A DNA stretch of 64,000 nt, taken from positions 25,355-89,354 of the forward strand of contig JAVEVA010000004.1 of NCBI GenBank assembly GCA_034005275.1, in the 5' to 3' direction. Shown in pieces: positions 4,293-30,253 of this stretch. A program made the position numbers and the translations under genes. The first letter of the stretch is position 1. Each line of letters begins with the position of its first letter. This DNA is from Thauera sp. (GTDB lineage Bacteria; Pseudomonadota; Gammaproteobacteria; Burkholderiales; Rhodocyclaceae). The notes under the pieces were generated by a model. It was not told the DNA's origin. It searched no databases and was given only the letters and a program-made list of their open reading frames with translations.

Positions 4293-4293
4293 G

Positions 4294-4752: not shown

Positions 4753-4757
4753 CGGTT

Positions 4758-4785
4758 TTGAGGCTTGCGGGTGAAATGTTAGAAT
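4758..4785 (+). promoter_or_regulatory. candidate sigma70 promoter for the BCCT transporter (TTGAGG-16 nt-TGtTAGAAT, extended -10)
   Basis: Read directly. It is followed by the inverted repeat ATTCTT-gag-AAGAAT at about 4799-4813, before the ATG at 4867. Confidence 0.35.
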
Positions 4786-4866
4786 ACATTTGTTGAAATA
4801 TTCTTGAGAAGAATCTGTTCGCCCGCCACGGTGGTGGCGGTGTGGCGTTCAGGGCAGACAAAAACA

Positions 4867-9970: not shown

Positions 9971-10463
9971 TCAGCTGGTTGAAGTCCAGCAGGCTGACCG
10001 GTTGAGCGTTGAATTCGAATACCGCGCTCACCAGGCTGCGCAGTGGCTCGGCAAAGTTGCCGGGCGGGCTGTGCAGCGCGCTGTGCGGCAGGTCGATGAC
10101 GTCGATGACGCGCTCGATGGCGATGCCGGTGCGCAGCTCGGCGTTGTGTGCCAGCAGGATGGTCGGTGTGGTCTGGTGTTCAGCAATCGCGGGCAGCTGC
10201 AGTACGGTGTCGAGGGCGAGCACCGATTCGATGTCGCCACGGACGTTGATCACCCCGGCCAGCGCCGGTGGGCAGGCGGGGATGAAGTGGAGCGGGGTGT
10301 CGACCAGGATCTCGCGGATGTATTGGCCGTCGAAGGCGAAGCAGTCCTTGCCGAGACTGAAGATGACCAGCTTGAGCTCGGGCTCATCAACATTGACCAC
10401 TGCTTCGCTGTCTCCGCCCTGCCGGGCGAGGATGTCGTCGAGCTGGAGTGCGGAATCGCTCAT
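9942..10463 (-). CDS. cheW: chemotaxis coupling protein CheW
   Basis: 'KLVIFSLGKDCFAFDGQYIREIL', 'LAGVINVRGDIESVLALD'. The ATG overlaps the upstream stop (ATGA). Confidence 0.88.
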   Translation of the reverse strand: MSDSALQLDDILARQGGDSEAVVNVDEPELKLVIFSLGKDCFAFDGQYIREILVDTPLHFIPACPPALAGVINVRGDIESVLALDTVLQLPAIAEHQTTPTILLAHNAELRTGIAIERVIDVIDLPHSALHSPPGNFAEPLRSLVSAVFEFNAQPVSLLDFNQLIAGWLRSLD

Positions 10464-12136: not shown

Positions 12137-12509
12137 GACCAGAGCTTGTGCCGGGTACGGAAACCAGTCCGGCAATGAGGGCGGGCAGGCTGTTTTCGAG
12201 GTCGAAATCTTTCATCAGGCAGGCGTCAAGGCCTGGTTCTTCGGCGAGCAGGGCAGCCGGATCGTCACCGGTGAGCAGGACAAAAGGCAGCGGACTGGCC
12301 TGGACGCGCAGTTCCCGGAAAAAATCGATGCCGCTCATCAGCGGCATGTTCATGTCGCTGATGATGAGCGCAATGTCCGGATGGGCATCCAGCTGGGCAC
12401 TGCCATCGAGCGCGTCCTCGCTGAGCACCACCTGATGGCCGCTGTCTTCGAGAATGGCGGCGAGCATTTCGCCGGCCATGGGGTCATCATCCACCACCAG
12501 TAGCTTCAT
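12129..12509 (-). CDS. stand-alone CheY-like response regulator receiver
   Basis: 'MKLLVVDDDPM', 'ALIISDMNMPLMSG', 'FVLLTG', 'CLMKD'. All conserved REC positions are visible. Confidence 0.85.
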   Translation of the reverse strand: MKLLVVDDDPMAGEMLAAILEDSGHQVVLSEDALDGSAQLDAHPDIALIISDMNMPLMSGIDFFRELRVQASPLPFVLLTGDDPAALLAEEPGLDACLMKDFDLENSLPALIAGLVSVPGTSSGHD

Positions 12510-12577
12510 GTGCTGTGTCCTCCACTTGTCAGGGCTGTGGCCCGGGCTGCATGGTTGTACCCTTGATCTTCATCTGC

Positions 12578-14857: not shown

Positions 14858-14859
14858 GC

Positions 14860-16344
14860 TCAGGCCTCGGAATGGTGCTCGTCCAGGCGGGCAAGCTGAC
14901 GTTCGCACATGAAACGAATCTGCGCGGCTGGCTGCTCCAGTGGCAGCTCGCGCAGGCCGGTTTCGCCGCCGGCATTGAGCAGCTGAAGGACCACCCGCAG
15001 GGCGCGCTGGGCCTGCAGCGGCTTGCCCTGGCTGCACCACAGATCGGCGAGGAAATAATGGGCCGGCCAGCAGGCGTGTTCGATATAGACCGTCTGGCGG
15101 AAATGCTTGATGGCGAGCTCGTCCTCGCCGGCCCACTTGGCGGTCAGGCCGAGCAGCATGCAGGCATCGAGTGACCAGGGGTCTCGCGCGAGCACGGCCT
15201 CTGCCAGCTCGCGGGCGGTGCTGAAGTGCTTGTGCTCGAGCTGCAGATAGGCTTTCAGCAGCATTGAACCGGGGTCGGCTGGTGCGGCCGCGAGCATGCT
15301 GTCGAGTTGACGGGCGGCCTGACTGAACTGCTTGTCGCGGATCAGGGCGCGTGCCTGTTCGCGGGCCGCCGGCAGCTCTGCCGGGCTCAGGCTGGGGGGC
15401 GGGCGCACCCAGTCTGCGGGGATCACCAGCGGCATGGGGGCGGTTGGTGCGGAGCTGGCAGCAGGCACCGTGGCCTGCCGCAGCGGTCTGCCGCTGGCCG
15501 GCAGCTGGCTGCTGGCTGCCAGCGGTGGCGCGCCCTTGATGAAATAGAATTGACCGTTCTCTTCAACCAGCCTGAGCACGCCCAGGTCATTGGCGAGGGT
15601 TTCCGCGCTGCCGACGATGAGAAAGCCGTCGCTCTTGAGCAGTCCGGCGAGGCCTTGCTGGATCTGGCGTCGGGTTTCGGTATCGAAGTAGATCGAAACA
15701 TTGCGCAGCAGGATCAGGTCGCAGCCCTGCAGTCCGGTGACCAGCCCGGTGGCGAGCAGGTTGAGCGGCTGGAAGCGGACATGTTGTCTGACGGCCGTCT
15801 TCAGCTGCCAGCCGCGTTCGCAGGGGTCGAAATAGCGGCTCCGGATTCCCGGAGCGACGCCGCGAAACGAGAACGGTGAGTATTGTGCCCGCTCGGCCTG
15901 GGCGAGAGCGTTGCTGTCGAGGTCGGCGCCGAGCAGCTCGAAATTCGCGCGTACGAATTCGCTGCCGTGACGATCGAGCAAAGCCATCGCCAGTGAATAA
16001 GGCTCTTCGCCGCTCGAACAGCCGGCGGAGAGGATACGCAGCTTCTCGCCTTCCTGCCTGGCGGCGAGCAGGCGGGGCAGGATGTGTTCGGTGATCAGGC
16101 TGATCTGCTCGGGTTCGCGGAAAAAATAGGTTTCGTTGATGGTGAGCAGATTGACCAGCGCCTGCAGCTCGTCACGGTCGTGTTCGAGGTGATGCAGGTA
16201 CTGGCTTGTGTCAAGGGCGAGGGCCGCCGCCCGCTCGGCGAGCGCCTGGCGCAGACGGATTTCATCGTCGCCTTCGAAACGCAGACCGCAGTGAGCCTTG
16301 ATCCGGGCGTGAAGGCAGGCGAGTGTGTGGGTGTCGATCATCAT
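14860..16344 (-). CDS. cheR: CheR-type chemoreceptor methyltransferase with C-terminal TPR region (WspC-like)
   Basis: 'ETYFFREPEQ', 'LRILSAGCSSGEEPYSLA', 'DLILLRNVSIYFD'. The C-terminal helical repeats look TPR-like. The ATG at 16344 overlaps the cheB stop (ATGA). Confidence 0.88.
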   Translation of the reverse strand: MMIDTHTLACLHARIKAHCGLRFEGDDEIRLRQALAERAAALALDTSQYLHHLEHDRDELQALVNLLTINETYFFREPEQISLITEHILPRLLAARQEGEKLRILSAGCSSGEEPYSLAMALLDRHGSEFVRANFELLGADLDSNALAQAERAQYSPFSFRGVAPGIRSRYFDPCERGWQLKTAVRQHVRFQPLNLLATGLVTGLQGCDLILLRNVSIYFDTETRRQIQQGLAGLLKSDGFLIVGSAETLANDLGVLRLVEENGQFYFIKGAPPLAASSQLPASGRPLRQATVPAASSAPTAPMPLVIPADWVRPPPSLSPAELPAAREQARALIRDKQFSQAARQLDSMLAAAPADPGSMLLKAYLQLEHKHFSTARELAEAVLARDPWSLDACMLLGLTAKWAGEDELAIKHFRQTVYIEHACWPAHYFLADLWCSQGKPLQAQRALRVVLQLLNAGGETGLRELPLEQPAAQIRFMCERQLARLDEHHSEA

Positions 16345-17402
16345 CTGGTCGCCTGGATGTCCGGACCTGTTTCCTTGCGGGCGATGGCGGCCAGGGTGGG
16401 GGCAATTTCCACCAGCGGCAGCACGCGCTGCACGCAACCGCGTTCGATGGCGACCCGGTTCATGCCGTAGATCACCGAGCTGGCCTCGTCTTGGGCGAGG
16501 GTCAGGCCGCCGGCCGCACGGATGGCGGCCATCCCGGCTGCACCGTCATGGCCCATGCCGCTCAGAATGAGGCCGGTGGCCGCTGCACCGCAATTTCTGG
16601 CGACCGAAGTCAGCAGTACGTCACAGCTCGGATGGTAAAGCTCGGTTTCGGCGCGTGCCTGCAGGTGCAGGGTATGGGTTGGACCGACGCGCAGGTTGTG
16701 CTCGGAAGGGGAGATGTAGATCTGGCCGGGGGCAAGCGGCATGCCGTTCTCTGCCAGCTTCACTGGCAGGGCACACAGTGAAGCCAGCCAGTCGACCATG
16801 CCCTGCGCAAAGCCGTCGCTGATGTGCTGCGCGATGACGATCGCTGCGGGGAAATCGGCCGGCAGGCCGGGCAGGATGTGGGCGAGCGCCTGGGGGCCGC
16901 CGGTGGATGCGGCGAAAGCGAACACCCGGCTGCCGGAGGGGGGCAGGGGGGCGAGGCCCGGCAAGATGGTCGGACTGTGGTCGGGCTGGAGTGAGGGGCG
17001 CAGGCGGGTGATCACCGAAACGCCGGCGAGCAGGCGCACCCGCTCGCACAGCTGCTCGGCCGCTGCTGGGCAGGCCTCCGGTTTGGCGGCCACTTCGAGC
17101 GCGCCCTTGGCAGTCGCTTCCAGCGCGCGTTGAGCGTCGCTCACACTGCTCAGCACCAGGATGGGCACTGCACGGGTGCACATGATCTCTTCGATCGCCT
17201 GCAGCCCGTCCATCACCGGCATCTCCAGATCCATGGTGATCAGGTCTGGTCGCAACTGGCGGGCGAGCTCAAGTGCCTGACGGCCATCTTCGGCTTCGCC
17301 AACCACTTCGATGTCGGGGGTGTCCTCCAGGATGGCGCGCAGCAGGCTGCGCGCCATCCTGCTGTCGTCCACCACCAGAACGCGCAGTTTGCTCATGCTC
17401 AT
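16341..17402 (-). CDS. cheB: chemotaxis response regulator protein-glutamate methylesterase CheB
   Basis: REC 'LRVLVVDDSRMARS...LITMDLEMPVMDG'. Esterase 'AFAASTGGPQAL', 'IVIAQHI', 'LSGMGHDGA'. Confidence 0.92.
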   Translation of the reverse strand: MSMSKLRVLVVDDSRMARSLLRAILEDTPDIEVVGEAEDGRQALELARQLRPDLITMDLEMPVMDGLQAIEEIMCTRAVPILVLSSVSDAQRALEATAKGALEVAAKPEACPAAAEQLCERVRLLAGVSVITRLRPSLQPDHSPTILPGLAPLPPSGSRVFAFAASTGGPQALAHILPGLPADFPAAIVIAQHISDGFAQGMVDWLASLCALPVKLAENGMPLAPGQIYISPSEHNLRVGPTHTLHLQARAETELYHPSCDVLLTSVARNCGAAATGLILSGMGHDGAAGMAAIRAAGGLTLAQDEASSVIYGMNRVAIERGCVQRVLPLVEIAPTLAAIARKETGPDIQATR

Positions 17403-17459
17403 TCAGCCTTGGGTGGAGTGGAAGGCAGGCGGCGAAAGTGGTCGGGCATGTGGGCGTGC

Positions 17460-19406
17460 TCAGGAGGCAGGCTTGCTGCCGTTGTCGCCGAGCTTGAAGT
17501 TCTGCACCAGCTGGTCAAGCTGACCGGACAGCGCCGACATGTCCTTGCTCACCTGGGAGATGCGGGTGATCGACTGTGCGGTGTGCGAACTGGCGCCGAC
17601 AATTTCCCGCAAGGCCACCACCACCTGGCTGCTGGCGGTTTTCTGCTGTTCGGTGGACAGGGAGATCTGCTGGGCAGCACGGCTGGTCTCGCTGGCAGCC
17701 TCGACGATGGCGTTGAGCCGTTCGGTGGCATGGGCGCTGGCTTCCAGACCGGCGGAAATGCCATTGGCGCCTTTTTCGGAAGTGATCACCAGACGGGCGA
17801 TCGCATCCTGGATGTCGTTGATGTGGGTTTCGATGTCACGGGTGGATTCGGTGACACTGTCCGCCAGACGGCGGATCTCGCTGGCGACGACCGAGAAGCG
17901 TTTGCCTGCTTCGCCCGCACTGGAGGCTTCGAGCGCGGCGTTGAAGGCGATCAGCTTGGTCTGATCGGCCACGGTGTTGATGATTTCCATCACCCGGCTG
18001 ATCTGCTTGGACTTGTTGCCCAGCGCGACGATTTCTTCGAGATTGTGCTGATTGTCGTTGCGAATGTCGTTCATGCGGCCGAGCACGGTCTGCATGGCAC
18101 TGGTGCCCTGGCGCGAGCCTTCGAGTGTCTGGTTGGCGATGTCGACCACTGAACGCGAATGGTCGGCGATCTGGGTCGAGGATGCCGACAGCTCTTCCAT
18201 GGTGGTGGTGATTTCGGCGACTGAGGATGACATCTGGGTCGAAGTCGCAGCTTGACCAGCCACCGTGCGGCTGATGTCGTCAGCTGCGTGATGGACGAGC
18301 GCCGAGTTGCTGCTCACTTCGGCCACCAGGCTGCGCAAGGTGTCCTGCATCTGGCGTGTGGTCGCGGCCAGCGAGGCAACTTCGTCACCGCCATCGACCT
18401 CGACCAGGGCGCTGAGATCACCGGTGGCAACTTGATGGACGCCGTGGGCAACCTGCTCCAGACGGCGGGTGATGTGACGGGCGAGCAGCAGGGTCAGCAA
18501 CATGCCGAGCAGGATGGAAACCACACCGACAATGATTGCCACTGTGCGCGAATGCTGCAGCGATGCCTGAAACTCACTGGCATCCATGGCAATTTCGATC
18601 ACCCCGATCGGCTGGGAGGAAAAGTCGCTCACTGGCGCGGCATAAATCGCCAGCGGCACGCCGTCGATGCTGCGGTGGGTGTATTGGATCTGACCTTCGA
18701 AAGCGGCGCGCAACAGGTTTTCGTCAAGCAGGGCTTCACGGCCGAAAGTGGCGGCCAGAGTCTTGAAGCTGCCCTTGCTGCGGTCGAAGACGTGCAGGCC
18801 GGCATCGACCGCATTGTCGCGCTTGAAGCTGTCGAAGAAAGCCTGATTGAAGCTCATGCCGAATTCGACCGAGCCAAGATGGCGGCCGCCGCTGCGCAGC
18901 GGGACGATGCCGCGCACGCCCAGCCCGGCGACCCCGCCTTCAAGGCCGCGTACCGGCTGCAGGGTGGTGTTGGTCGCCACCACAGTATGGCGGAAGGCGG
19001 AAAGATCATCGCCGTGCTTTTGCGGCATGTGCACCCGCAGCCAGGAAGTGGCCGGCGGAGTGTGGAACTGGAACTGCTCGATGCCGTAATCCTGGGACAG
19101 CACGCTGAAGCCAGGCACGAAGAGGCGGCTCAAGGTCTGCCGGTCATCGTTGGCAAAGCTTTCCTGCACCAGCGGCATGCTGGCCACCAGCGCACTCAGT
19201 GCTTCAGCAGTGTGGCTTTCGGCAGCAATCGAGCGGGTGAGCGCCCGCAGGTGGCCATCCAGCGCGCTGCGTTCGGCGGTCTCGATCAGCGCGCTCAGAT
19301 TGTTGAGGTTGGTGAAGGTGAGCGTTGCCCCCACGCCACCGATGGCGACCCCGACCACCAGCATGATCTTGGCCCAGAGGCCGAATTTGCCCGCTACCAT
19401 CTGCAT
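17460..19406 (-). CDS. methyl-accepting chemotaxis protein with Cache-type periplasmic sensor and HAMP domains
   Basis: Two TM segments flank a periplasmic region of about 270 aa. This is followed by a HAMP domain and the signalling hairpin 'IADQTKLIAFNAALEASSAGEAGKRFSVVASEIRRLA'. Confidence 0.9.
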   Translation of the reverse strand: MQMVAGKFGLWAKIMLVVGVAIGGVGATLTFTNLNNLSALIETAERSALDGHLRALTRSIAAESHTAEALSALVASMPLVQESFANDDRQTLSRLFVPGFSVLSQDYGIEQFQFHTPPATSWLRVHMPQKHGDDLSAFRHTVVATNTTLQPVRGLEGGVAGLGVRGIVPLRSGGRHLGSVEFGMSFNQAFFDSFKRDNAVDAGLHVFDRSKGSFKTLAATFGREALLDENLLRAAFEGQIQYTHRSIDGVPLAIYAAPVSDFSSQPIGVIEIAMDASEFQASLQHSRTVAIIVGVVSILLGMLLTLLLARHITRRLEQVAHGVHQVATGDLSALVEVDGGDEVASLAATTRQMQDTLRSLVAEVSSNSALVHHAADDISRTVAGQAATSTQMSSSVAEITTTMEELSASSTQIADHSRSVVDIANQTLEGSRQGTSAMQTVLGRMNDIRNDNQHNLEEIVALGNKSKQISRVMEIINTVADQTKLIAFNAALEASSAGEAGKRFSVVASEIRRLADSVTESTRDIETHINDIQDAIARLVITSEKGANGISAGLEASAHATERLNAIVEAASETSRAAQQISLSTEQQKTASSQVVVALREIVGASSHTAQSITRISQVSKDMSALSGQLDQLVQNFKLGDNGSKPAS

Positions 19407-19533
19407 ACGTTTCCGCCAGAAATTGGTGAATGCCCCGTCCCTCCGGGACGCAGACCGAGCGCAGATTCTTGCATAACCGAACGCGCTTGTCTCGATTGCC
19501 GCGCAGCTCAGGCCGTCGAGCCGGGCGGTCGCT

Positions 19534-19705
19534 TCAGCCTTGTGTCAGGGTTTCGAATTGGAGGCCGGTGATGTTGCTGGCCGGTTTGGATGCCGACGAG
19601 CTGGACAGGACCGCTGGCGCGGTATTGTCGGCGTAGTGGCGTGCCTTGGGCTGGACGAGGGTGGAGCCATGCGCCCGGGCAGCCTCTTCATCGACATGGC
19701 TGAAA
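19534..19705 (-). pseudogene. remnant: last ~50 codons of an AAA-ATPase-like/PD-(D/E)XK (PF09820/PF08011-type) gene
   Basis: Translation '...GSTLVQPKARHYADNTAPAVLSSSSASKPASNITGLQFETLTQG*' parallels the C-terminus of the intact gene at 26532-28097 ('...GRALAQLKARHYADKYRTSGPVHLVGVEFSQRERNIVGFEFETLAPE*'). A 20-nt identical run 'tcggcgtagtggcgtgcctt' occurs at 19628-19647 and 26635-26654. Confidence 0.65.
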
Positions 19706-19710
19706 CCAGG

Positions 19711-19737
19711 AAAACCAAGCGGTTGTCCTGTTGTTTG
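19711..19737. repeat. left copy of a 27-bp direct repeat (24/27 identical, 16-bp perfect core GTTGTCCTGTTGTTTG) bracketing fic
   Basis: 'aaaaccaagcggttgtcctgttgtttg' here versus 'aaaacgaagtagttgtcctgttgtttg' at 21047-21073. Confidence 0.7.
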
Positions 19738-19762
19738 TCCCCTGCGGTGAATAGCACTCCTT

Positions 19763-19785
19763 ATCACCGCACAATGTGCGGTGAT
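19763..19785. promoter_or_regulatory. perfect 11-bp-arm palindrome ATCACCGCACA-a-TGTGCGGTGAT, 40 nt upstream of fic (candidate operator)
   Basis: Read directly. 'cataat' lies at 19813-19818, just before the fic ATG. Confidence 0.4.
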
Positions 19786-19825
19786 TGGCATTGCGAATGC
19801 CGAGCTTGTGGCACATAATCTCCGC

Positions 19826-20950
19826 ATGAATAGCGGTGATTGCACGTATATCTGGCAGGTCAGCGATTGGCCTCACTGGCGCTTCGACCTGGCTGCATTG
19901 GCGGAGCCGATGGTGGGGGTCAGTCGTGCCCAAGGCGTTTTGCTGGGTCGATTATCGGACGTCGGCATGGCCTTGCGCGATCAGGCCAGCCTGGCTGCGC
20001 TCACCGATGATGTGGTCAAAACCAGCGAGATCGAGGGCGAGACGCTCAGTGTCGAATCCGTGCGCTCTTCCATCGCTCGCCGCCTTGGAGTCGACATTGG
20101 TGCGCTGGCACCGGTGGATCGCCATGTCGAAGGCGTGGTGGAAATGGTGCTGGATGCCACCGTCAATGCCCGCACCCCTGTCAATCAGGAGCGTCTGTTC
20201 GGTTGGCATGCCGCCCTGTTCCCCACGGGCTACTCCGGTCTGGCGAAAATCAGCGTGGGCGTCTGGCGTGATGATGCCAACGGCCCAATGCAAGTGGTGT
20301 CCGGTCCCATCGGTCGTCAGCGGGTGCATTACGAAGCGCCACCGGCGAATCGGCTGGATACCGAAATTTGCAGATTCTTTGACTGGGTCAATGGCCCTGC
20401 AAACGATCCGTCCTTGCTCAGGGCTGGCCTCGGCCATCTGTGGTTTGTAAGCTTGCATCCGTTCGAGGATGGTAACGGTCGTATCGCCCGAGCCATGGGG
20501 GATTTGCTTCTGGCGCGTGCCGATGGCAGTCCTCAGCGCTTTTACAGTTTGTCTGCCCAGATCCAGAGAGAACGCAAGGCCTACTACGACATCCTGGAGC
20601 GAACCCAGAAACGGTCGATGGATGTTACCGAGTGGCTTCTCTGGTTCCTTGAAACCTTGCATCGCGCCGTCGATCAGGCGCAGGCCACGCTCGACACCGT
20701 GCTGGTCAAGGCACGATTCTGGCGGCACTGGGGCTCAATGCCGCTGAACGGACGACAAGTGAAAATGTTGAACAAATTGCTGGATGGTTTTGATGGCAAG
20801 CTGACCACCAGCAAGTGGGCGGCCATCGCCAAGTGCTCGCAAGATACCGCGTTGCGGGATATCAGCGACTTGCTGACACGCCGTGTGCTGCGCAAATCCG
20901 ATGGCGGTGGCCGGAGCACCAGCTACGAGCTGGATGATCTACCGCAATAG
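19826..20950 (+). CDS. Fic-family protein (DUF4172-type N-terminus, Fic core, C-terminal winged-helix-like tail), class II with N-terminal inhibitory motif
   Basis: Fic motif 'HPFEDGNGRIARAMG'. The inhibitory (S/T)xxxE(G/N) motif is seen as 'KTSEIEGE'. The N-terminus 'YIWQVSDWPHWRFD' is typical of this subfamily. I chose the ATG at 19826. Confidence 0.88.
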   Translation: MNSGDCTYIWQVSDWPHWRFDLAALAEPMVGVSRAQGVLLGRLSDVGMALRDQASLAALTDDVVKTSEIEGETLSVESVRSSIARRLGVDIGALAPVDRHVEGVVEMVLDATVNARTPVNQERLFGWHAALFPTGYSGLAKISVGVWRDDANGPMQVVSGPIGRQRVHYEAPPANRLDTEICRFFDWVNGPANDPSLLRAGLGHLWFVSLHPFEDGNGRIARAMGDLLLARADGSPQRFYSLSAQIQRERKAYYDILERTQKRSMDVTEWLLWFLETLHRAVDQAQATLDTVLVKARFWRHWGSMPLNGRQVKMLNKLLDGFDGKLTTSKWAAIAKCSQDTALRDISDLLTRRVLRKSDGGGRSTSYELDDLPQ

Positions 20951-21046
20951 AGCCACCGATGATCGGCATATAGCAGCCACTTGAGCCGGGCTCAGACGGA
21001 CGTCTTTGGGGATCAAGAACCAGTGTTTTTCGGGTGTTTGCAAGCT

Positions 21047-21073
21047 AAAACGAAGTAGTTGTCCTGTTGTTTG
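21047..21073. repeat. right copy of the 27-bp direct repeat bracketing fic
   Basis: See 19711-19737. Confidence 0.7.
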
Positions 21074-21259
21074 CACTGCTGCTTTAACGGCTGATGACTC
21101 GGAGCTCCGGCGGCGTGCGAAAACTGAGCAAGGCAGGCAATATCGGTCACCGTAAAGGGGCAGGCGGGTTATTTGGCCGTCGAGTGGCGGGTCGGTCATA
21201 ATTCTTGACGCGGATGCCTATTTGTGACCCAATGCAGGGGAACAATATGAGGTGATCCC

Positions 21260-21592
21260 ATGCAGGCCTTCACTATCCGCGAACTGCGCGAACGCTCCGG
21301 CGACCTGAGTCGTGAGGCCGATGAGGGTCGGCTGGCGCTTGTCACCCGGCACGGACAGCCACTGTTTGTCAGCGTTCCCTTCACCGAGGAGCTGCTGGAG
21401 GCGGGCGTCCATGCGGCATTAGCTGTGAATCTGTTCAAGAGCGGCGAGATGACCTCTGCACGCGCTGCCAAAGTGGCACGAATGAGCGTGCCTCAATTTT
21501 TGGCGTATCTGTCTGCACAGGGCATTCCGGTAGTTGATCACGATCCCGCGGAGCTGGAGCAAGAACTCGCAGCCTTTGATGCGGCGCAATGA
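21260..21592 (+). CDS. type II antitoxin, apparent fusion of a Phd/YefM-like N-terminus and a UPF0175-like C-terminus
   Basis: N-terminus 'FTIRELRERSGDLSREADEGRLALVTRHGQPLFVSVP'. C-terminus 'AVNLFKSGEMTSARAAKVARMSVPQFLAYLSAQGIPVVDHDPAELEQEL'. RBS GAGGTGA; the stop overlaps the next ATG (ATGA). Confidence 0.75.
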   Translation: MQAFTIRELRERSGDLSREADEGRLALVTRHGQPLFVSVPFTEELLEAGVHAALAVNLFKSGEMTSARAAKVARMSVPQFLAYLSAQGIPVVDHDPAELEQELAAFDAAQ

Positions 21593-22086
21593 GTCGGCCT
21601 GTCGTTGTTGCTGACTCCGGCCCCCTGATTGCGCTGGCCGGGTGTGGGGAACTGGATCTGTTGGTCGCCGTTTTCGATACTCTCCATGTGCCGCAAAAGG
21701 TGCTGGATGAAACCACGGCAGATCGCTCGCGCCCCGGTGCGGCCGACATCGCCGCCTTTGTTCAGGTCCGCGCACAGGTGCATCCCAACCGCAGTGATGC
21801 GGTCTACGCTGCCGCTGTCAGCTACCTCGACGATGGCGAGGCGCAGGCTCTGAGCCTGGCGCAAGCTTTGGGCTGCGGTGTGCTGATGGACGAGCGCCGT
21901 GGCCGCCAAACGGCGACCCGCCAAGGTGTGTCCCTGTTTGGCGTGCTGGGTGTGCTGTTGCAGGCCAAGCGAATCGGCAAGCTCGAACGCATTGCGCCCG
22001 CATTGGAGCGGATGCAGACCAACGGCTACCGTATTTCGCAGGCGCTCATTGATGAGGCCCTGCGGCTCGCCGGCGAAACCCGCTGA
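21589..22086 (+). CDS. DUF3368-type PIN-like nuclease toxin
   Basis: 'VVVADSGPLIALAGCGELDLL', 'DDGEAQALSLA', 'VLMDERRGR', 'GVLGVLLQAKRIG', 'GYRISQALIDEAL'. This is the usual partner of UPF0175 antitoxins. Confidence 0.75.
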   Translation: MSRPVVVADSGPLIALAGCGELDLLVAVFDTLHVPQKVLDETTADRSRPGAADIAAFVQVRAQVHPNRSDAVYAAAVSYLDDGEAQALSLAQALGCGVLMDERRGRQTATRQGVSLFGVLGVLLQAKRIGKLERIAPALERMQTNGYRISQALIDEALRLAGETR

Positions 22087-22229
22087 GCCATCAAACGGGC
22101 AGAACAACGCACGGAAAAACGCATGGAAAAACGGGGTGGGTGTCCTGTCGACTTTCCTGGCATGGCAAACCTGCGGGACGGTCAGTTTTTTCCCTTCATG
22201 CCCCTCAGGGGCTCGTAAATCAAAATTGG

Positions 22230-22502
22230 TTATCGCCGATAAACATCCCGGCGGTTACCGATCTTGACGACCAGGATGTGCATCAATCCGTCCTCGATGC
22301 TGGAGATCAGCCGGTAGTCGCCCACGCGATACTTCCAGAACTCCCCGAGCTTGCTGCCCTTGAGGGCCTCGCCAATGCTGCGCGGGTCTTCAAGCTTCGC
22401 CACGCGCTCGAACAAGAAGAGCAGGATGCGCCGGGCGTCCTGAGGGTCGAGTTTTGCCAACTCGCGTTCGGCGGCGGGATCGAGCTCAACCTTCCACGCC
22501 AT
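22230..22502 (-). CDS. RelE/ParE-family type II toxin
   Basis: 'WKVELDPAAERELAKLDPQDARRI', 'FWKYRVGDYRLISSIEDGLMHILVVKIGNRRDVY'. Confidence 0.85.
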   Translation of the reverse strand: MAWKVELDPAAERELAKLDPQDARRILLFLFERVAKLEDPRSIGEALKGSKLGEFWKYRVGDYRLISSIEDGLMHILVVKIGNRRDVYRR

Positions 22503-22716
22503 AGCGCTCCATCACATCTTCGAGTGGAACCGTCCGGGTCTTGCCCGAGCGGATATCTGCCAGGCGTTGCTCGGCGAGGTACAGATCCTCAAGGTCATCA
22601 AGGTGCTCCCGGATGGCCTCGACCATGTAGTAGGTCTTGCTGCGCCCCGTCATCTGAGCCAGATTCTGCAGCCTTTGCGAGATGTCATCAGGCAGGCGGA
22701 TGGAAATGGCACTCAT
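22486..22716 (-). CDS. ribbon-helix-helix (RelB/ParD-like) antitoxin
   Basis: 'ISIRLPDDISQRLQNLAQMTGRSKTYYMVEAIREHL'. It overlaps the toxin gene by 17 nt. Confidence 0.82.
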   Translation of the reverse strand: MSAISIRLPDDISQRLQNLAQMTGRSKTYYMVEAIREHLDDLEDLYLAEQRLADIRSGKTRTVPLEDVMERYGVEG

Positions 22717-22785
22717 CGCAGATGACTCCTGACAACCGAATAGAGGTGCAAGTATCTCACACCGGGCTGTGATCTGAGCACCCCA

Positions 22786-25700
22786 CTACACCGCTCCGGC
22801 GCCAGCCGAGGTGTAGCGGCCATCCTGCTGTTTGCTCAGCATGCCGAGTTCTTCGAGGGCGTCGAGTACCGCCTGGACGGCGGCGGTGGGTTTGCGCTTG
22901 AAGCGGGTGGCGAGTTCGGCGGTGGTCTGGGCGTCGCTGGCGAGGGCGCTGCGCACGGCGGCGATCTGTTCGCGCATGGTCTTGGGCCAGTTCAGTTTGT
23001 CGCTGCTGATGGCGGTGTTGTCCGGTACGCCGTCTGCATCGGCTGAAGTGGATTCGGTGTCGAGCCGGGTCTGGTGGCTGCTGTGACCTTGCGGATTCTG
23101 GTAGTCGGGGCGCAGCCAGCGGATGTGGCCCTGCGCTTCTTCGGCGGCGCGCTGGCGGTTGAGTTCGACCAGGCGTTTGAGCAGTTCTTCTTCGGCCGCT
23201 GCCTGGGTTTCAGTTTTGTCGGGCAGCGGAGTGGTGGCACCGGGCAGGCCGATCAGTTGTGCGGCGAGATCGTGCCAGCCGTAGGCGTCGAGCACCGCGC
23301 GGTCGAGCTCGTCGTGCAGTTCGCGCAGCACCGAGACCAGGCCCTGTTCGTGGGTGATCTTGTCCTTGGCGGTCAACGGTTCGCTGGCGCGCAGTTTTTC
23401 CAGCACGTTGTACAGATTGGTCAGCGTCAGCTCGGGGTGCTGTGCCTGCTGGCGTTTGCGGTGGGCGTCGAGACGTTCGGCGAGATCGCGGATTGTGGCC
23501 TGCTGTTCGGGACTGGTGTCGGGGAAGGGGAAGGTTTCGAAGCAGACGCTTTTGTTATAGCGAGGACGGTCTTCGAGCGTACCGCCAGCGGCCAAAGCCC
23601 AGGCGCAATGGATGCGGCTGGAGAGGACGCCCAGCGGATAGGTGTCGGCACTGGCAATGCTGATGAGCATGTTGTCGGGCAGGATGTCAGCTTCAAGGAA
23701 CTGGAACAGCCGGTGTTTGGTGGTTTCGACTGTTGCTATGAAACGAGGCAAGCCGGCAAGCTGCTTTCTCAACTCGCTGCGAGGCTTCCCGAAAAGCCAC
23801 CACAAGGCAGCATAGCCTGCGCCATCTTTGGTGTCGGATTTAGCATCGCGATCGGGCTTTACCCGCTCAAGCACATGCTGATACAGCGATGGAAACTCGT
23901 TGCGCAGTTGTTGCAGATCCAGGCCGAACAGGTCGATCACCATCACGCCGCGTGGTGACTGGGTCAAATCGCGGCCATTGCGATAATCGCGGATGTGCCG
24001 CTCAATGTCCGGCTGAGTGCCCAGTCCCAGTTTGGCGGCTTCTTCCGGCGTGACGATAAAGCCGGAACCGTGCAGTTTGACTCCCGGTGAGCTGATGTTT
24101 TGCATGGCTTGCAGCGCCTGAGCAGCAGCGACATTGGCGCCGGTTTTGAGGTCAGCAAACAAGACGCCACGCTGCTCCCCGAGACGTACTTCAACTTCAT
24201 CCTGCACACTTTGTGAAGCGGTTTCTTCCCGCACCTGCAACAAACGTCCCGTTTCAATATTCCGTCCGCCGACGGTCATCGCAATGCGTACCGCAGCGCC
24301 GTCCGCTGCATCCACCCAGGGATGATCAGGAATGGCAAAAGCCAGCGTGAGCGGATTCTTTTTCGCTTCCAGCTGGGCCTGTACCACGCGTCGGTTGAAA
24401 GTCTGCTTGATCGAGTTGGTGGTGATGAAACCGAACTGGCGGGCGCTGCCGGCGCGTACTGCTTCAGCGGCGATGTGCCACCAGTACATGACGAAATCTG
24501 CTGATTCGGGAATTTCCTTCCAGGTGCTGCGCACCGCATCGACATAGCCATCGCCAAGCGCGCGGCGCATGGTGGAAGCGCCGATGAACGGCGGATTGCC
24601 CACAATGTAATCCGCCTGCGGCCACTCCGCCTTGCGCGGATTCAGGTAACGATATTGCACGATCTGCGCAGTTTCATCGGGAATCGGCTCGCCGGTGATC
24701 GGGCTGGTCTTGTAGCGGATGCCGTCCCAGCGCGTGAGCGGCTGGCCGTGTTCGTTGCAGAGCACTTCCTCCGCATCGTAGGCGAGCAAGGCGTCGCGGT
24801 TTTCGATGTTCTTGAAGTCACGCAGTACCGGTTCAGGTGGGCTGATGCGGCCGTGAGTGCGGAAATGCCATTGCAGATAGCCGATCCACAGCACCATTTC
24901 GGCAATGCGCGCGGCGCGGGGATTGATTTCCAGACCGAGAAACTGGTGCGGGTCGACGGTGACGCCTTCCATATCGAGCAGGCCCTGGGACTCACCCAGA
25001 TCGTGCAGCAGATTGAGCACTTCGCCTTCGAGGCGCTTCATGTGCTCCAGCGTGACATACAAAAAGTTGCCGCTGCCGCAGGCCGGGTCGAGGATGCGCA
25101 GCTGGCAGAGGTGCTGATGGAAGCTGCGTACTTCGGCGACCGCCTGTTTGCGCTTGTGTTGGTTTTCGTACGCGAGTGCGGCAGTCTGGACTTCCTGCCA
25201 TTCCTTGCGCAGCGGTTCGATCACCGTTGGCAACACCAGGCGTTCGACGTAGGCGCGTGGCGTGTAGTGGGCGCCGAGCTTGTGGCGTTCGCGGGGGTCG
25301 AGCGCGCGTTCGAGCAAAGTGCCGAAAATCGCCGGTTCAACATACGTCCAGTCGGCGGTCGCTGCCTTGATCAGCAGTTCGATCTGCTCGCGTTTCAGGG
25401 GCAGCGCCCTGGAGCTGGCAAACAGGCCGCCGTTGAAGCGCAGGATGCTGCGCTCCAGAATCGGCGAGAAGCCGCCGCTGTTCATGCTGCCCCACAGGTG
25501 TTCGAGCATCGGCGCGAAGGTGTCGGGGGTGTTTTTCAGCCGTTCGAGCAGGCTGGCAAAGCTGCGCGCCGGCAGCAGGCCGACGTCTTCGGCAAACATG
25601 GTGAACAGCGCCCGCATCATGAATTCCGCCACTTGCTGGGCGGGATGGCCATCGGCTTCCAGCGATTTGGCCAGTCTGGCGAGCTGGTCGGCAATGTCGC

Positions 25701-26301
25701 GAGTGACGCGGGCCGCTTCGCGGCTGGGGTCGAGGCTCAGTGGCTCCAGCCAGACCGCACGCAGACGCTGACGGATCGCCGGCTGGTGCAGCTCGGCAAG
25801 CTGGATGCGGTGGCTGCGTGCGTCGGGAAACGGTGTGTAGGTGGCGCCGGAGCGGGAGAACTCGGCGTACAGCTCGATATTGCGGCCGACATCGGTGACA
25901 ACGATGAAAGGCGGACGGCCTTCATCAGCAGGCAGGGCGCGGACGTATTGATCGGCCTGGTTGTGCGCGCGCAGCATGGCTTTGTCCCAGCCGCTGCTCT
26001 CCATGTTGAGACCGCTCTGCTTGGCTTCGAGCACGAAACTGCCGCGGCGGTAGAGGTCAATGAAGCCGTTGCTGGTGCTGCCGTCGGGCTTGCTGAGAAT
26101 GACGCGGCGCTCGAACACGTAGGCGTTGTCACGCCGCTCCTCACTTGCCGGCTCGGGCTGGGGCAGGTCGAGCAGGGCGCACAGTTCGAGCAGAAAGAGC
26201 TGATAGTTGGCGCGCTCGCTGCCGCTGACATCCTGCCAGCGTTCGATGAAAGCGGTGATGGCCGGCTGACCGGCCTGAGTGTCGGAAATGGGGGCGTTCA
26301 T
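22786..26301 (-). CDS. MmeI-family type IIL (IIG) restriction-modification enzyme: N-terminal PD-(D/E)XK nuclease, gamma-class N6-adenine methyltransferase, target-recognition region, long C-terminal extension
   Basis: The nuclease motif '[19 protein letters not shown]' has the same D-x9-E-x-K spacing as MmeI 'FVDLFWPGILLIEMK' (recalled from memory). Also '[12 protein letters not shown]', '[27 protein letters not shown]', motif I '[13 protein letters not shown]' and motif IV 'GNPPFIG'. Confidence 0.8.
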
Positions 26302-26409
26302 GGGCGGATTATGACGGTTTTAGCGAGAAAATCGGGTGCGGCGCTTGATCCACGCATGAATGCCCCGCTGCAGTCCTCCGTCCTCTTTTGAAGGTGGGTT
26401 TTTCTTGTT

Positions 26410-26440
26410 CTTGTGGTGTCGGGGCCATGCCCCGGCTTGC
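26410..26440. repeat. REP-like element, family A
   Basis: 'cttgtggtgtcggggccatgccccggcttgc', between the MmeI-like gene and the AAA-ATPase gene. Confidence 0.7.
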
Positions 26441-26531
26441 TCCGATTGGCAACACAAACCCCACGCGCAATGCTGTGTGGCAAGGCTTTGCTCCCCTCGC
26501 GGGCGAGTGGTCGGGGGTGGGGGGAGAGACT

Positions 26532-28097
26532 TTACTCCGGCGCCAGGGTTTCAAACTCGAAGCCGACGATGTTGCGTTCGCGCTGGCTGAATTCGACGCC
26601 GACGAGGTGCACGGGGCCGCTGGTGCGGTATTTATCGGCGTAGTGGCGTGCCTTGAGCTGGGCGAGGGCGCGGCCTTCAGGGACAAGTTCGACCACCTTG
26701 AATTCGAACAGCCAGGTGTGGCCGTGGCAGCGGACGGTGAGGTCGATGCGGCCCTGGTTGGTGACGTCTTCGACGGCGAGGTCGATGCCGAGGGCGGCGA
26801 AATGGCTGTAGAACACGCTGGCCCAATAGCCTTCGTAATGGGCGATGGGGTTGTTGCGATACCAATCGTGGGGAATGCTGGCGAAGAAAGCGGTGAATAG
26901 TGCTTTGAGCGCCGGTAGGTCATTGGCCTGAAGCAGGTGGTAGAGATTGCCGACCTGGCGGGCGTAGTGGCTGGGATGGCCGGTGAGGGTCTGCAGCAGG
27001 GCACCGTTGAGCGCAGTGCGCACTTCGAGATTGGGGTAGTGGAGCTGCACCCGGGTGAGGCCGGGAATGTGTTCAACTGCGCCGATGGTCAGATAGCCGG
27101 TCTGAAAGAGCAGGGTTTCGGTCGGGATGTGGTCGACATCGAAGCTGGAAAGCAGCGCTTCGGGGGTGAGCAGCTGGTCGAGTGCCGGGGTGAATTGCTG
27201 GCGCTCGGTGAGCAGCTTGATCAGAAAAGCCGGGGTGCCGGTTTCGAACCACCACGGACGGAAACTGCGCTGTTCGAACAGCAGCAGCACATCGAACGGG
27301 TTGTAGACTGCTTCGCCGAGCCAGTTGTAGCCGTTGTACCAGCGGCGGATTTCGGCTCGCTCAAGGCCGGGCAGTTCCGGAGCAAAGACCTGGTCGAGGT
27401 CGGCTTCGGTGTAGCCGCACAAGGCGCTGTAACGGGCGTCGAGGGTGATGTCCTGCAGATTGTTGAGACCGGAAAACAGGCTCACTTTGCTGAATTTCGA
27501 CACCCCGGTAAGGAAAGCGAAATGCACGTACTGGTCGCTGTCCTTGATGACCGAGTAGAAGTCCTTGAGCTGTTCGCGGATGGCAAGCGCCAGCGCCGGC
27601 TGTTCGATGCGGTCGAGAATCGGTTTGTCGTATTCGTCGATGAGGATCACCACGCGCTGGCCGCTGTGCTGTGCCCAGTGCTGGATCAGGCTGCGGAAAC
27701 GTTCGGTGACGCTGTCATCGGCTGGGCAGATGCCGGCCTCGGCTTCGAGGCGCTGCAAGTGGGACACCAGCCGGCTGCGCAGATCGGCCGCATCCTGCAC
27801 CACGCCGCCGCCAAAGCTGAAACGCAGCACCGGATGTTTGCTCGTCCAGTCCCAATGCTGTTCGGCGTACAGCCCTTTGAACAGGGCGGCGTTGCCTTCA
27901 AACAGTTCTTTCAGCGTGTCGAGGAACAGGCTTTTGCCAAAGCGGCGCGGGCGCGAGAGAAAGAAATGGCTGCCTTGCGCCGCCAGCTGGACGGCGAACG
28001 GCGTCTTGTCGACGTAGTAATAGTCGTCTTCGCGGATTTTGGCGAAAGTCTGGATGCCGATCGGCAGCTTGCGACGAGGCAGGGTGGCAGTGCTCAT
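26532..28097 (-). CDS. AAA-ATPase-like (PF09820-type) protein with C-terminal PD-(D/E)XK (PDDEXK_9/DUF1703-type) domain
   Basis: 'LPIGIQTFAKIREDDYYYVDKTPF', 'FFLSRPRRFGKSLFLDTLKELFEG', 'VILIDEYDKPI'. C-terminus 'GRIDLTVRCHGHTWLFEFKVV'. I chose the ATG at 28097 (MSTATLPRRK); the track's extension runs through a REP element. Confidence 0.8.
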   Translation of the reverse strand: MSTATLPRRKLPIGIQTFAKIREDDYYYVDKTPFAVQLAAQGSHFFLSRPRRFGKSLFLDTLKELFEGNAALFKGLYAEQHWDWTSKHPVLRFSFGGGVVQDAADLRSRLVSHLQRLEAEAGICPADDSVTERFRSLIQHWAQHSGQRVVILIDEYDKPILDRIEQPALALAIREQLKDFYSVIKDSDQYVHFAFLTGVSKFSKVSLFSGLNNLQDITLDARYSALCGYTEADLDQVFAPELPGLERAEIRRWYNGYNWLGEAVYNPFDVLLLFEQRSFRPWWFETGTPAFLIKLLTERQQFTPALDQLLTPEALLSSFDVDHIPTETLLFQTGYLTIGAVEHIPGLTRVQLHYPNLEVRTALNGALLQTLTGHPSHYARQVGNLYHLLQANDLPALKALFTAFFASIPHDWYRNNPIAHYEGYWASVFYSHFAALGIDLAVEDVTNQGRIDLTVRCHGHTWLFEFKVVELVPEGRALAQLKARHYADKYRTSGPVHLVGVEFSQRERNIVGFEFETLAPE

Positions 28098-28165
28098 GAG
28101 GCTGATTATGCCGCGTTTGCGCTGCGGAGGACGGGGTGTCGCCGGTCTTGTCGGGCAAGTGCAGG

Positions 28166-28261
28166 TTTTTCTTGTGGCGACGGGTCCGTGACCCGGAGTT
28201 CCTGCGCTGGTGCTGTAGCACGCGCTTGCTCGGGGCATGGCCCCGGCGCCACAAGGAAAAA
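28166..28261. repeat. composite family A REP element (two inverted half-sites)
   Basis: 'tttttcttgtggcgacgggtccgtgacccgg ... gcttgctcggggcatggccccggcgccacaaggaaaaa'. It is co-linear with the element at 52457-52537. Confidence 0.75.
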
Positions 28262-28267
28262 CGATGC

Positions 28268-29905
28268 TCAGGCGAGGCCTTGCGAGTCGAGGTATTCGTC
28301 GTAGGTGCCGCGGTAGTCGATGATCTGGCCGTCGAGCTTGATTTCGATGATGCGGGTGGCCAGGGTGGAGACGAATTCACGGTCGTGGGAGATGAACACC
28401 AGCGTGCCATTGAACTTGTCGAGCGCGGTGTTGAGCGATTCGATCGATTCCATATCGAGGTGGTTGGTCGGCTCATCCATCAGCAGCACATTGGGCCGTG
28501 ACAGCATCAGCTTGCCGAACAGCATGCGACCTTGTTCGCCGCCGGAAATGACTTTCACCGATTTTTTCACTTCTTCACCGGAGAACAGCAAGCGTCCCAG
28601 CGTGCCGCGCAGCAGGGTTTCGTTGTCTTCGCCGGTGGCGGCAGCAGTGATGCGCGCGTAGGGGGCGATCCAGTCGGTGAGGCTGCTGTCTTCGGCAAAG
28701 TCGGCCGAGTGATCCTGGGCGTAATAGCCCGGTTTGGCTTTTTCGGCCCACTTCACGGCGCCTTTGTTCGGCGTGAGGCCGCCCAGTTCAGGGCCGGCGA
28801 GCAGTTTGATGAGTGTGGTCTTGCCGACGCCGTTCTCACCGATGATGGCGATCTTCTCGCCAGCTTCGATGGCCAGCGACAGCTTGTTGATCAGCGGCTT
28901 GTCCATGCCGTCGTAAGCGAAACTGATGTTGTCCAGTTCGCAGGCAAGACGGTGCAGCTTGTCCTTGTCGTCGTATTCGAAGCGGATCCAGGGATACTGG
29001 CGGCTGGACGGCTTGACGTCTTCGGGTTTGAGCTTGTCGATCAGCTTGAGGCGGCTGGTGGCCTGCTTGGCCTTGGATTTGTTGGCCGAGAAGCGGCGGA
29101 CGAATTCCTGCAGCTCGGCGATCTTTTCCTTGGCACGGCTGTTGGCCGCCGACTGGCGCTGGCGGGCCAGGGTGGACGCTTCCATGTAGTCGTCGTAGTT
29201 GCCCGGATAGATGGTGATGGTGCCGTAGTCCAGGTCGGCCATGTGGGTGCACACCTGGTTGAGGAAGTGGCGGTCGTGGGAAATGATCACCATCGTGCAG
29301 TCGCGTTCGTTGAGCACGTCTTCGACCCAGCGGATGGTGTTGATGTCGAGGTTGTTGGTCGGTTCGTCGAGCAGCAGGATGTCGGGGTTGGCGAACAGGG
29401 CCTGGCACAGCAGCACGCGCAGCTTCCAGCCGGGAGCGACTTCGCTCATCGGGCCATTGTGCAGTGCGCTGTCGATGCCGACGCCGAGCAGCAGCTCGCC
29501 GGCACGGGCTTCGGCGGTATAGCCGTCGAACTCGGCAAAGCGGCCTTCGAGCTCGGCGGCGTGCATGTAGTCGTCTTCGGTCGCTTCAGGATTGGCGTAG
29601 ATCGCGTCCTTTTCCTGCATGCAGGCCCACATCTCTTCGTGGCCCATCATCACCACGTCGAGCACGCGGCGGTCCTCGTAGGCGAACTGATCCTGGCGCA
29701 GATAGGCCATGCGCTCGTGAGCCTCTTTGGAGATGTTGCCGGCGGAAGGTTCGAGAATGCCGCACAGGATCTTCATGAAGGTGGACTTGCCGGCGCCGTT
29801 GGCGCCGATGAGGCCGTAACGGTTGCCTTCGCCAAACTTGACGGAGACATTCTCGAACAGGGGCTTGGCCCCGAACTGCATGGTGATGTTGGCGGCGACG
29901 AGCAC
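28268..29905 (-). CDS. ABC-F family ATPase (YbiT-like, two ABC domains, no TM domain)
   Basis: '[42 protein letters not shown]' and a second cassette '[18 protein letters not shown]', with '[13 protein letters not shown]'. I chose the GTG at 29905, preceded by AGGA 7 nt upstream, which gives a YbiT-like N-terminus. The track start is 30061. Confidence 0.88.
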
Positions 29906-30253
29906 GGAATAATCCTGTTTGATCGGTAAAACAAAGCCTTGCATTCTAGCGCAGAACAAGGCAGGCAGGATTGTCGGTTCGAGCCCCGTCCGGGGGAAAC
30001 GGTCATGTTCCTGCCGGGGCGCAGCGCTGGCTGGACTGGGTTCCTGATGGTTGAAAATCATCCGTTTTCCGTCAGGAGAAAAGAGGAGGGTTTCTGTATC
30101 CGGTAATATTCGAAACTATTTCCATAGTATAGAATTCTGTCCTCGGTGGAGTTGAGCGCCAAGGCTCGCGAGTTTCTTGACCAGCAAGCTGGCGCAAATG
30201 GAGCGGTGACGAGTGGTGCAGTCACCACAAACCATCTGATCCTGGAGTGGTGC

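Follow-up and report, generated by a model that had tools for sequence, protein, structure and literature searches.

The window analysed here, a stretch of 64,000 nucleotides of contig JAVEVA010000004.1 from a Thauera sp., contains an intact gene of the DUF1703 family, which encodes an AAA-ATPase-like domain followed by a PD-(D/E)XK nuclease domain, and, on the same strand, a decayed fragment of the 3' end of such a gene, referred to below as the ghost. Between the two tails lies an islet of defence-type genes, whose contents were assigned with Pfam, PADLOC and NCBIfam. The ghost, the islet and the intact gene comprise the following features.

19534-19668, minus strand: the ghost, a decayed 3' stump of a DUF1703 gene corresponding to codons 475-521 and the stop codon (alignment, reading frames and family hidden Markov model, HMM)
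19826-20950, plus strand: Fic/DUF4172 gene, SoFic-like (PADLOC, Pfam/NCBIfam)
21260-22086, plus strand: UPF0175 antitoxin-like gene (21260-21592) and DUF3368 PIN-like gene (21589-22086), PADLOC candidate PDC-S70
22230-22716, minus strand: RelB-family ribbon-helix-helix antitoxin (22486-22716) and ParE toxin (22230-22502) (Pfam/NCBIfam)
22786-26301, minus strand: MmeI-type Type IIG/IIL restriction-modification enzyme of 1171 amino acids (four MmeI Pfam domains)
26532-28097, minus strand: intact DUF1703 gene, 521 amino acids, PF09820 AAA-ATPase_like and PF08011 PDDEXK_9 (Pfam)

The ghost and the intact DUF1703 gene

An earlier note on this DNA had described a diverged duplicate of the last 50 or so codons of the DUF1703 gene at 19534-19705, still in frame, on the same strand and about 7.0 kb from the original, and had suggested aligning the two tails. 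The alignment is highly significant: by blastn, 19546-19668 matches 26544-26668 on the same strand, at the spacing given, with 97 identities in 125 columns, nine of them gaps (E=2e-23 against the whole window, the runner-up match having E=0.11). When the last three codons and the stop codon are counted, the ghost occupies 19534-19668. Global alignment, the three reading frames and the family HMM agree that homology ends at codon G475, and the remaining 19669-19705 has no similarity to the DUF1703 gene at the level of DNA, protein or family HMM. The duplicate thus stands, with a shorter extent, and it is not in frame. A 1-nt deletion after ARHYAD causes a -1 frameshift and an 8-nt deletion follows 16 codons further on, so that the net difference of 9 nt, which had been taken for a single indel, is the sum of two; the part between them is readable only in the other frame, as YRASGPVQLVGIQTGQ, where the intact gene has YRTSGPVHLVGVEFSQ. 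The longest exact run, previously given as 20 nt (19628-19647 vs 26635-26654), extends to 21 nt (19628-19648 vs 26635-26655) and is separated by 20 nt from the repeat's inner edge. Overall identity of the repeat is 84%, with indels; a run of this length is expected by chance at that identity and therefore provides no evidence of a recombination core. As the ghost begins at G475, it includes none of the nuclease residues D452, E465 and K467.

Beyond the stop codons the similarity is not continued. The 127 nt past each stop gave no significant alignment (p=0.014 against shuffled sequences, 0.03-0.16 against real segments of the window), and a shared downstream flank was therefore rejected even though CGGGGCAT is found at +99/+100 after both stops. 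A second candidate ghost, the peptide VPEGRGIHQFLAETYAD encoded at 19399-19452, resembles DUF1703 residues 472-488 and overlaps, in another frame, the start of the neighbouring gene for a methyl-accepting chemotaxis protein (MCP). This match was not significant (tblastn E ~0.9; 143 of 200 shuffles equalled its nucleotide score), and the resemblance is probably due to chance.

To place the ghost within the family, we compared it with an alignment of 120 DUF1703 members, the intact gene and 119 others. The ghost has the same residue as the intact neighbour at 27 of 44 comparable positions, as opposed to at most 22 (mean 18) for the other 119 members. Residues common to the ghost and the intact tail include several that are rare in the family, namely A483 (found in 18% of members), H485 (1%), S493 (12%) and F515 (3%), and both carry the motif KARH, which occurs in none of the other 119. 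Eleven differences between the two are replacements on the ghost side at residues conserved in 63-100% of the family (A477T, L481P, K489Q, H497Q, V501I, E502Q, F503T, S504G, V511T, F513L and E514Q), T492 being the single change on the intact side. Rare shared residues together with ghost-specific decay indicate that the gene now lost had been a nearly identical duplicate of its neighbour, and not a diverged paralogue. Substitutions in the ghost are spread over the codon positions as 11:7:9 and, with the two frame-breaking deletions, this points to neutral decay from a near-identical start, which has by now reached about 0.2 substitutions per site plus the two deletions. Judged by these sequences, the ghost is an old pseudogene stump that was nearly identical to the present tail when it formed and has decayed neutrally since; it is no independent paralogue of ancient date, and its formation was an old event.

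The intact gene has the two-domain architecture of the family in the expected N-to-C order, with PF09820 scoring 222 bits (gathering cut-off 26.1) and PF08011 64 bits (cut-off 25.5). Its Walker A motif GKS is present at residues 54-56, and the nuclease motif D452/E465-x-K467 is kept; all three of these nuclease residues are invariant in the 120 homologues. There was no PADLOC, NCBIfam or PDB sequence match to this gene. Its AlphaFold model, of moderate quality (pLDDT 72), has weak likeness to ATPases of the Apaf-1/RdrA type and to nuclease domains of the CinB/CidB type, and PF09820 is also listed for RdrA of the RADAR system (PMC10952713). It is plausible that the DUF1703 gene is a defence-type gene itself. 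The closest database homologues of its protein are at most 74% identical, no relatives were found among viral contigs, and exact-protein look-ups of the DUF1703, MCP and MmeI proteins returned nothing. In several DUF1703 genes (window 28098-28125, and loci L017, L021, L118 and L119), a -10-like box (CATAAT, TAGAAT or TACAAT) lies merely 7-10 nt before the ATG; boxes this close suggest leaderless transcripts and a possibly self-contained gene unit.

A patchwork islet

The cargo listed in the earlier note (a Fic gene, two toxin-antitoxin (TA) pairs and an MmeI-like restriction-modification (RM) enzyme) was confirmed by these annotations. The MmeI-type enzyme combines the MmeI_N, helicase-spacer, methyltransferase and target recognition domain (TRD) families in one polypeptide, all of them above the Pfam threshold, and matches PADLOC REase_MTase_IIG across its full length with 1568 bits. 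The other PADLOC matches in the islet are SoFic and, for both genes of the UPF0175/PIN pair, PDC-S70, so several known or candidate defence genes are clustered here in the manner of a defence island, with ParE/RelB among them. Beside the DUF1703 gene, all open reading frames (ORFs) of 19.5-28.1 kb are accounted for by Fic, UPF0175, PIN, ParE, RelB and MmeI, with no room left for a recombinase, and the Pfam scan of the islet ORFs detected no transposase between the two tails. The adjacent 10 kb on either side, consisting of chemotaxis (che) genes and of ABC-F and GGDEF genes, contain no recombinase either. A tRNA scan found no tRNA gene within the window, and there was no Rfam match at gathering thresholds. 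The absence of integrase, transposase and tRNA genes that had been noticed by eye is therefore borne out.

The cargo modules each possess a promoter of their own, and their nearest relatives differ. The MmeI gene is 76% identical at the nucleotide level to a copy on a Pseudomonas fulva plasmid, where it is solitary, and the Fic gene is 71-74% identical to genes of Cupriavidus and Variovorax, being solitary where annotated in Variovorax. When the whole islet was compared with plasmids, single genes matched but the set never did. The Fic unit carries operator palindromes and a -10 box of its own at 19764-19825. Upstream of Fic (window 19764-19842; ~3990-4070 in L120 and L121) we noted a perfect palindrome of 21 nt, TCACCGCACA-A-TGTGCGGTGA, along with GCGGTGA(A/T)T boxes that occur repeatedly; palindrome and boxes are both conserved in Cupriavidus and Variovorax and probably constitute an autoregulatory operator. 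The islet appears as a patchwork of modules with no recognisable mobile element, and its present mobility is unlikely.

Base composition does not delimit the islet. Its GC content (0.575-0.633) is lower than that of the che operon on the left (0.62-0.67), as the earlier note had judged by eye, but is not below that of the right-hand DUF1703 and ABC-F genes (0.597-0.62). GC at third codon positions (GC3) is clearly lower for Fic (0.69) and UPF0175 (0.63) only, and tetranucleotide distance revealed neither a clear island nor a sharp boundary. These signals are too weak, and an attempt to delimit foreign DNA by GC, GC3 and tetranucleotides was dropped. The lack of a sharp compositional boundary implies that the cargo is old or came from donors of similar composition.

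Two kinds of short repeat accompany the modules: a 27-nt junction motif, here called D1, and repetitive extragenic palindromic (REP)-like units.

19711-19737, plus strand: D1a, AAAACCAAGCGGTTGTCCTGTTGTTTG, between the ghost and the Fic unit
21047-21073, plus strand: D1b, 24/27 identical to D1a, between Fic and UPF0175/PIN
22128-22154, plus strand: D1c, 18/27, between PIN and ParE
26405-26434, minus strand: palindromic REP-like unit of the genome's type, 98 nt downstream of the intact DUF1703 stop codon
28166-28260, no strand assigned: two inverted REP-like units (28166-28195 and 28231-28260) between ABC-F and the start of the DUF1703 gene

The window contains three copies of D1, which share the pattern AAAAC-N3-G-N2-G-N-TGTCCTGT; all are on the plus strand, and each lies in the spacer at a module junction. 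D1a and D1b bracket the Fic unit, whose conserved left end, as defined by Cupriavidus and Variovorax, starts just inside D1a. D1 may be a mark of stepwise insertions. Integron cassette arrays and clusters of attC sites lacking integrases (CALINs) are alike in consisting of short modules, TA pairs among them, with a motif recurring at each junction, and attC sites are imperfect palindromes of the form R''/L''...L'/R' at cassette ends. Here, however, there is no integron integrase, the modules have their own promoters and mixed orientations, and D1 lacks attC-like R''/R' boxes. Identification of D1 as attC was rejected since the three spacers share no hairpin (D1a folds with z=-2.6, the others with about +0.9) and have no GTTRRRY/RYYYAAC boxes. 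D1 had no Rfam match and was likewise rejected as a known RNA family; a viral-sequence identity was also discarded.

The REP-like family, with the unit CGGGGCATGGCCCCGgCgCCACAAGaAaA, is found in the window at 1000-1029, 26405-26434, 28166-28195, 28231-28260, 52457-52486 and 52522-52536, and in none of the fetched loci other than the sister-strain contigs described below. The DUF1703 gene has three of these copies around it, and two of the three form an inverted pair. These 30-nt inverted repeats were considered as transposon ends and rejected, as they are REP-like copies that also occur at 1000 and 52457.

A hypervariable interval and related DUF1703 loci

The islet lies within a longer variable interval of a Thauera-like chromosome. 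Its flanks, and the segment that distinguishes the sister strains, are as follows.

17460-19406, minus strand: left flank, MCP gene of the dCache_3/HAMP type, at the head of a Wsp-like che cluster (9942-19406)
28268-29908, minus strand: right flank, ABC-F ATPase, a core gene
17688-20561, no strand assigned: segment deleted in the sister strains L122/L125, L126 and L127 (contig comparison)

The ABC-F protein is 85-90% identical to its orthologues in Thauera, Azoarcus and Aromatoleum, and at 2.5-9.2 kb the genes for PtsI, HPr, BCCT, DUF294 and RNase T show synteny with Thauera sp. WH-1. The interval from ABC-F to RNase T holds the che cluster, the ghost, the islet and the DUF1703 gene. The che cluster (CheW, Hpt-REC-GGDEF, REC, CheA-CheW-REC, CheR-TPR, CheB and the dCache_3 MCP) has its nearest relatives in Comamonadaceae, at no more than 75% identity, whereas the neighbouring core genes are Thauera-like; it is probably an acquired part of the variable interval. 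What follows ABC-F differs in every relative examined: one locus has nothing there (L041), another has one unrelated ORF of 518 aa (L042), a third has H-NS directly after ABC-F, its contig ending within about 800 nt (L043), and two have ~9 kb of other genes (L044 and L045). The ABC-F to RNase T interval is thus hypervariable. A search of genome and metagenome contigs with the MCP protein gave best relatives of 69-75% identity, in which the che operon is conserved and nothing upstream is syntenic; upstream of MCP in the best of these che-cluster relatives there is neither a DUF1703 gene nor a tail of one. The ABC-F relatives, tried as a source of an empty site, show only the variability of the interval, and no empty site or islet-free closer relative was found among the MCP relatives, the ABC-F relatives or the sister strains.

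Sister strains were reached through the closest MmeI homologue with local context (P0343, leading to L122) and through exact look-up of the PIN protein (L126, L127 and L128). DNA of these four contigs is 96.9-99.9% identical to the window. L122 carries DUF1703, MmeI, RelB/ParE and PIN/UPF0175 in the order of the window, and the other three cover parts of the same stretch, L126 from MmeI on and L127 from ParE on. In L122, L126 and L127, three independent assemblies from different samples, a single clean junction joins window position 20562 to 17687 (at 7622/7623 in L122), which amounts to a deletion of 2,874 bp without microhomology. It takes the 5' part of the MCP gene, the ghost, D1a and the 5' part of Fic, and leaves 3' stumps of 77 codons of MCP and 129 codons of Fic, the 3' part of Fic being fused to that of MCP; the che cluster thereby loses its sole MCP gene. 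This clean deletion, with the stumps it leaves, demonstrates that illegitimate deletion at this site makes 3' gene stumps like the ghost. The strains differ also in the MmeI gene, whose TRD block (window 23747-24149, residues ~715-865; L122 4041-4431) is only 27-57% identical to that of the sister strains, as opposed to 90-100% elsewhere in the protein. Such an apparent TRD swap probably changes the recognised sequence; Furuta et al. have also described strains that differ by TRD substitution in a Type IIG gene (PMC2853133). The MmeI gene appears split in L122; this is a scaffold gap and not a mutation.

Several DUF1703 copies are present in many genomes, HdN1, Melaminivora jejuensis and Acidovorax HDW3 among them. 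Two close homologues stand alone between core genes, one between hemC and ppc and the other between a flagellin-glycosylation cluster and flagellin. On plasmids, DUF1703 genes lie among TA and defence genes; the plasmid homologues found are 56-62% identical. Hydrogenophilus plasmid pTH1 (L118) carries two DUF1703 genes (4146-5717 and 14560-16125) as direct repeats 10.4 kb apart around UvrD, a Piwi-domain prokaryotic Argonaute (pAgo) and trfA. Their proteins are 90% and their DNA 93% identical, and each repeat consists of the ORF with 44 nt of upstream and 67 nt of downstream sequence. Such an arrangement may represent a cointegrate or a composite structure. Of the five copies on plasmid pCALNI01, two stand in tandem, separated by 129 nt, and another is truncated. 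A Sphaerotilus plasmid has a block of CRISPR, BREX and Sir2 genes enclosed by DUF1703 remnants, namely two tandem pseudogenes and an N-terminal fragment. DUF1703 genes thus tend to be paired in tandem, to be truncated, or to flank defence cargo as direct repeats. In Cardinium cCpun, Siozios et al. (2019) have published expansion, horizontal transfer, partial copies and recombination between paralogues for genes of the same two-domain architecture (PMC6387759). That work concerns endosymbionts, whose proteins were read as secreted effectors, whereas the gene in our window is single-copy apart from the stump and stands in a defence context.

Origin of the locus and its meaning

The roughly 6.7 kb between the two tails are not self-mobile and constitute a patchwork defence islet, arguably including the DUF1703 ATPase-nuclease itself. 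As to how the ghost arose, we favour, at about even chances, a second DUF1703 copy that was largely overwritten as defence modules accreted. A complete second copy of the same DUF1703 lineage would once have stood downstream of the present intact gene; the islet would have been built stepwise, by illegitimate insertion and deletion in the hypervariable ABC-F to RNase T interval, and these accretion events would have overwritten the first 474 codons of the second copy, leaving the ghost. We infer the order of events at the locus. This reading is preferred in view of the near-identical origin of the tail, the tandem and truncated copies habitual in the family, the mosaic cargo, the stump-making deletion and the host-type REP unit after the gene. 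Of the two explanations offered in the earlier note, truncation of a second paralogue by cargo therefore survives as to the truncated copy, the paralogue being a near-identical duplicate and not a diverged gene, as its rare shared residues and ghost-side decay indicate. Several points weigh against such an overwritten duplicate. The searches turned up neither a genome carrying two complete copies nor an empty site, and the full second copy is thus one that we infer. Homology halts at the stop codon, although a tandem segmental duplication would be expected to copy some flank, as it did for 67 nt past the stop in pTH1. Several steps are required (duplication, insertions and deletion), as opposed to one for an integration into the 3' end, and it is somewhat surprising that a stump at about 0.2 substitutions per site should persist beside intact cargo.

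That single step is the other explanation of the earlier note, by which an element integrated site-specifically into the 3' end of DUF1703, brought a replacement tail and displaced the original, its integrase being lost later while the element decayed. In topology the locus matches icd, e14 and icdC of Escherichia coli K-12 exactly (PMC13626634), where an intact gene, an accessory insert and a displaced same-strand 3' fragment are likewise found and the repeat is limited to the coding tail; at our locus, too, the repeat goes no further than the stop codon, the cargo is of the sort that genomic islands typically carry, and internal deletions of the kind shown at this site could have taken the integrase. 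However, e14 has its own integrase and excises precisely, and its icd and icdC tails are a few substitutions apart without a frameshift (PMC13626634), whereas here no recombinase is encoded in 19.5-28.1 kb or within 10 kb to the left or right of it, the insert is mosaic and the ghost is heavily decayed, the repeats being only 84% identical with indels and their exact run no longer than chance. The incoming tail would have had to stem from the same narrow lineage of a very diverse family, in which the closest database members are no more than 74% identical; a host-type REP unit lies right after that tail, inside what would be element DNA; the modules differ in nearest relatives and GC3; and no viral contig encodes a DUF1703 relative. 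Elements of the e14/icd type contain a tyrosine or serine recombinase gene, usually beside one att site, and their attL and attR have an identical core in common where the crossover occurred, at the repeat's inner edge. The layout continues to fit such an integration, which has nevertheless been weakened on all these counts, and we consider it distinctly unlikely. A somewhat better, though still unlikely, alternative dispenses with the recombinase: DNA of a close relative, or a circular molecule, bearing the same DUF1703 lineage and the cargo would have entered by RecA-dependent recombination within the DUF1703 gene or upstream of it, with the other side resolved by an illegitimate join, as in homology-facilitated illegitimate recombination, or by Campbell-type integration and deletion, so that the recipient's own tail was left as the ghost. 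Such homology-anchored acquisition accounts for the end of homology at the stop codon (the downstream context being donor DNA), for the arbitrary 5' break at codon 475 and for the near-identity of the tails at the start, and a donor of the same species would be consistent with the REP unit that follows the intact gene. It also agrees with plasmid DUF1703 genes lying beside TA and defence genes, with the direct repeats around a replicon-like segment of pTH1 and with the paralogue recombination documented in PMC6387759. But neither the donor nor a hybrid structure has been seen, the plasmid homologues, at 56-62% identity, are too distant to share the rare residues, and the question of how cargo came to stand beside DUF1703 is only shifted to a donor that must already have had the arrangement.

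In work of 2000, Nobusato reportedly described RM units inserted with long target duplication. Applied here, an RM block devoid of mobility genes would have duplicated ~135 nt or more of the gene tail on insertion. The locus has the formal features by which Furuta et al. 2010 screened for such units, namely both restriction and modification functions in an insert below 20 kb, direct repeats above 30 bp and no mobility genes (PMC2853133); the values measured here are an insert of 6.9 kb with a fused RM enzyme, a repeat of 125 nt and no mobility gene. The 27-nt D1 repeats around the Fic unit could be seen as a smaller case of the same kind. The published repeats, however, are 93-100% identical (PMC2853133), much more than the 84% with indels observed here, a difference that decay of the non-functional copy can explain, and the insert comprises four independent modules, a mosaic and not one RM unit. 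Moreover, the end of the repeat at the stop codon is left unexplained, no insert-free relative was found in which the copies of the target could be counted, and the mechanism itself is not established. We regard this origin as very improbable. The overwritten duplicate accordingly remains the reading that we prefer, and in this respect the locus is a new instance of a known and fairly ordinary scar of gene turnover.

As in other defence islands at hotspots between core genes, RM, Fic and TA genes (and possibly the ATPase-nuclease) are clustered here, the contents between the same core genes vary among relatives, and turnover by insertion and deletion leaves pseudogene remnants; the locus differs from those in that a whole Wsp-like che cluster is also accommodated between ABC-F and RNase T/DUF294/BCCT/ptsHI of a Thauera-like lineage. 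To our knowledge, the ABC-F to RNase T hotspot has not been described before, and it offers a variable site in Thauera-like bacteria for hotspot surveys. The locus documents how defence genes turn over, with modules added without a dedicated recombinase and older genes overwritten to stumps, while sister strains differ by clean deletions and a swapped specificity domain of the Type IIG enzyme.

A more far-reaching view, which we rate as a rather improbable long shot, is that DUF1703 genes, combining a STAND/RdrA-like ATPase with a PD-(D/E)XK nuclease, are semi-autonomous units of 1.7 kb with their own promoter that duplicate locally and provide portable homology, or entry points made by the nuclease, where defence cargo builds up. 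The intact gene and ghost of our window, the pTH1 repeats and the Sphaerotilus fragments around CRISPR and BREX would then be stages of one process. Should DUF1703 copies indeed seed or anchor the acquisition of cargo, for which the present cases are anecdotal, this would be a new route of island formation. The family combines traits of defence and selfish genes: it is multi-copy and horizontally spread, it occurs solitary between core genes and beside TA and defence genes of plasmids, and its ATPase fold is distantly like those of Apaf-1 and RdrA. It is the most interesting loose end of this locus and merits a functional test.

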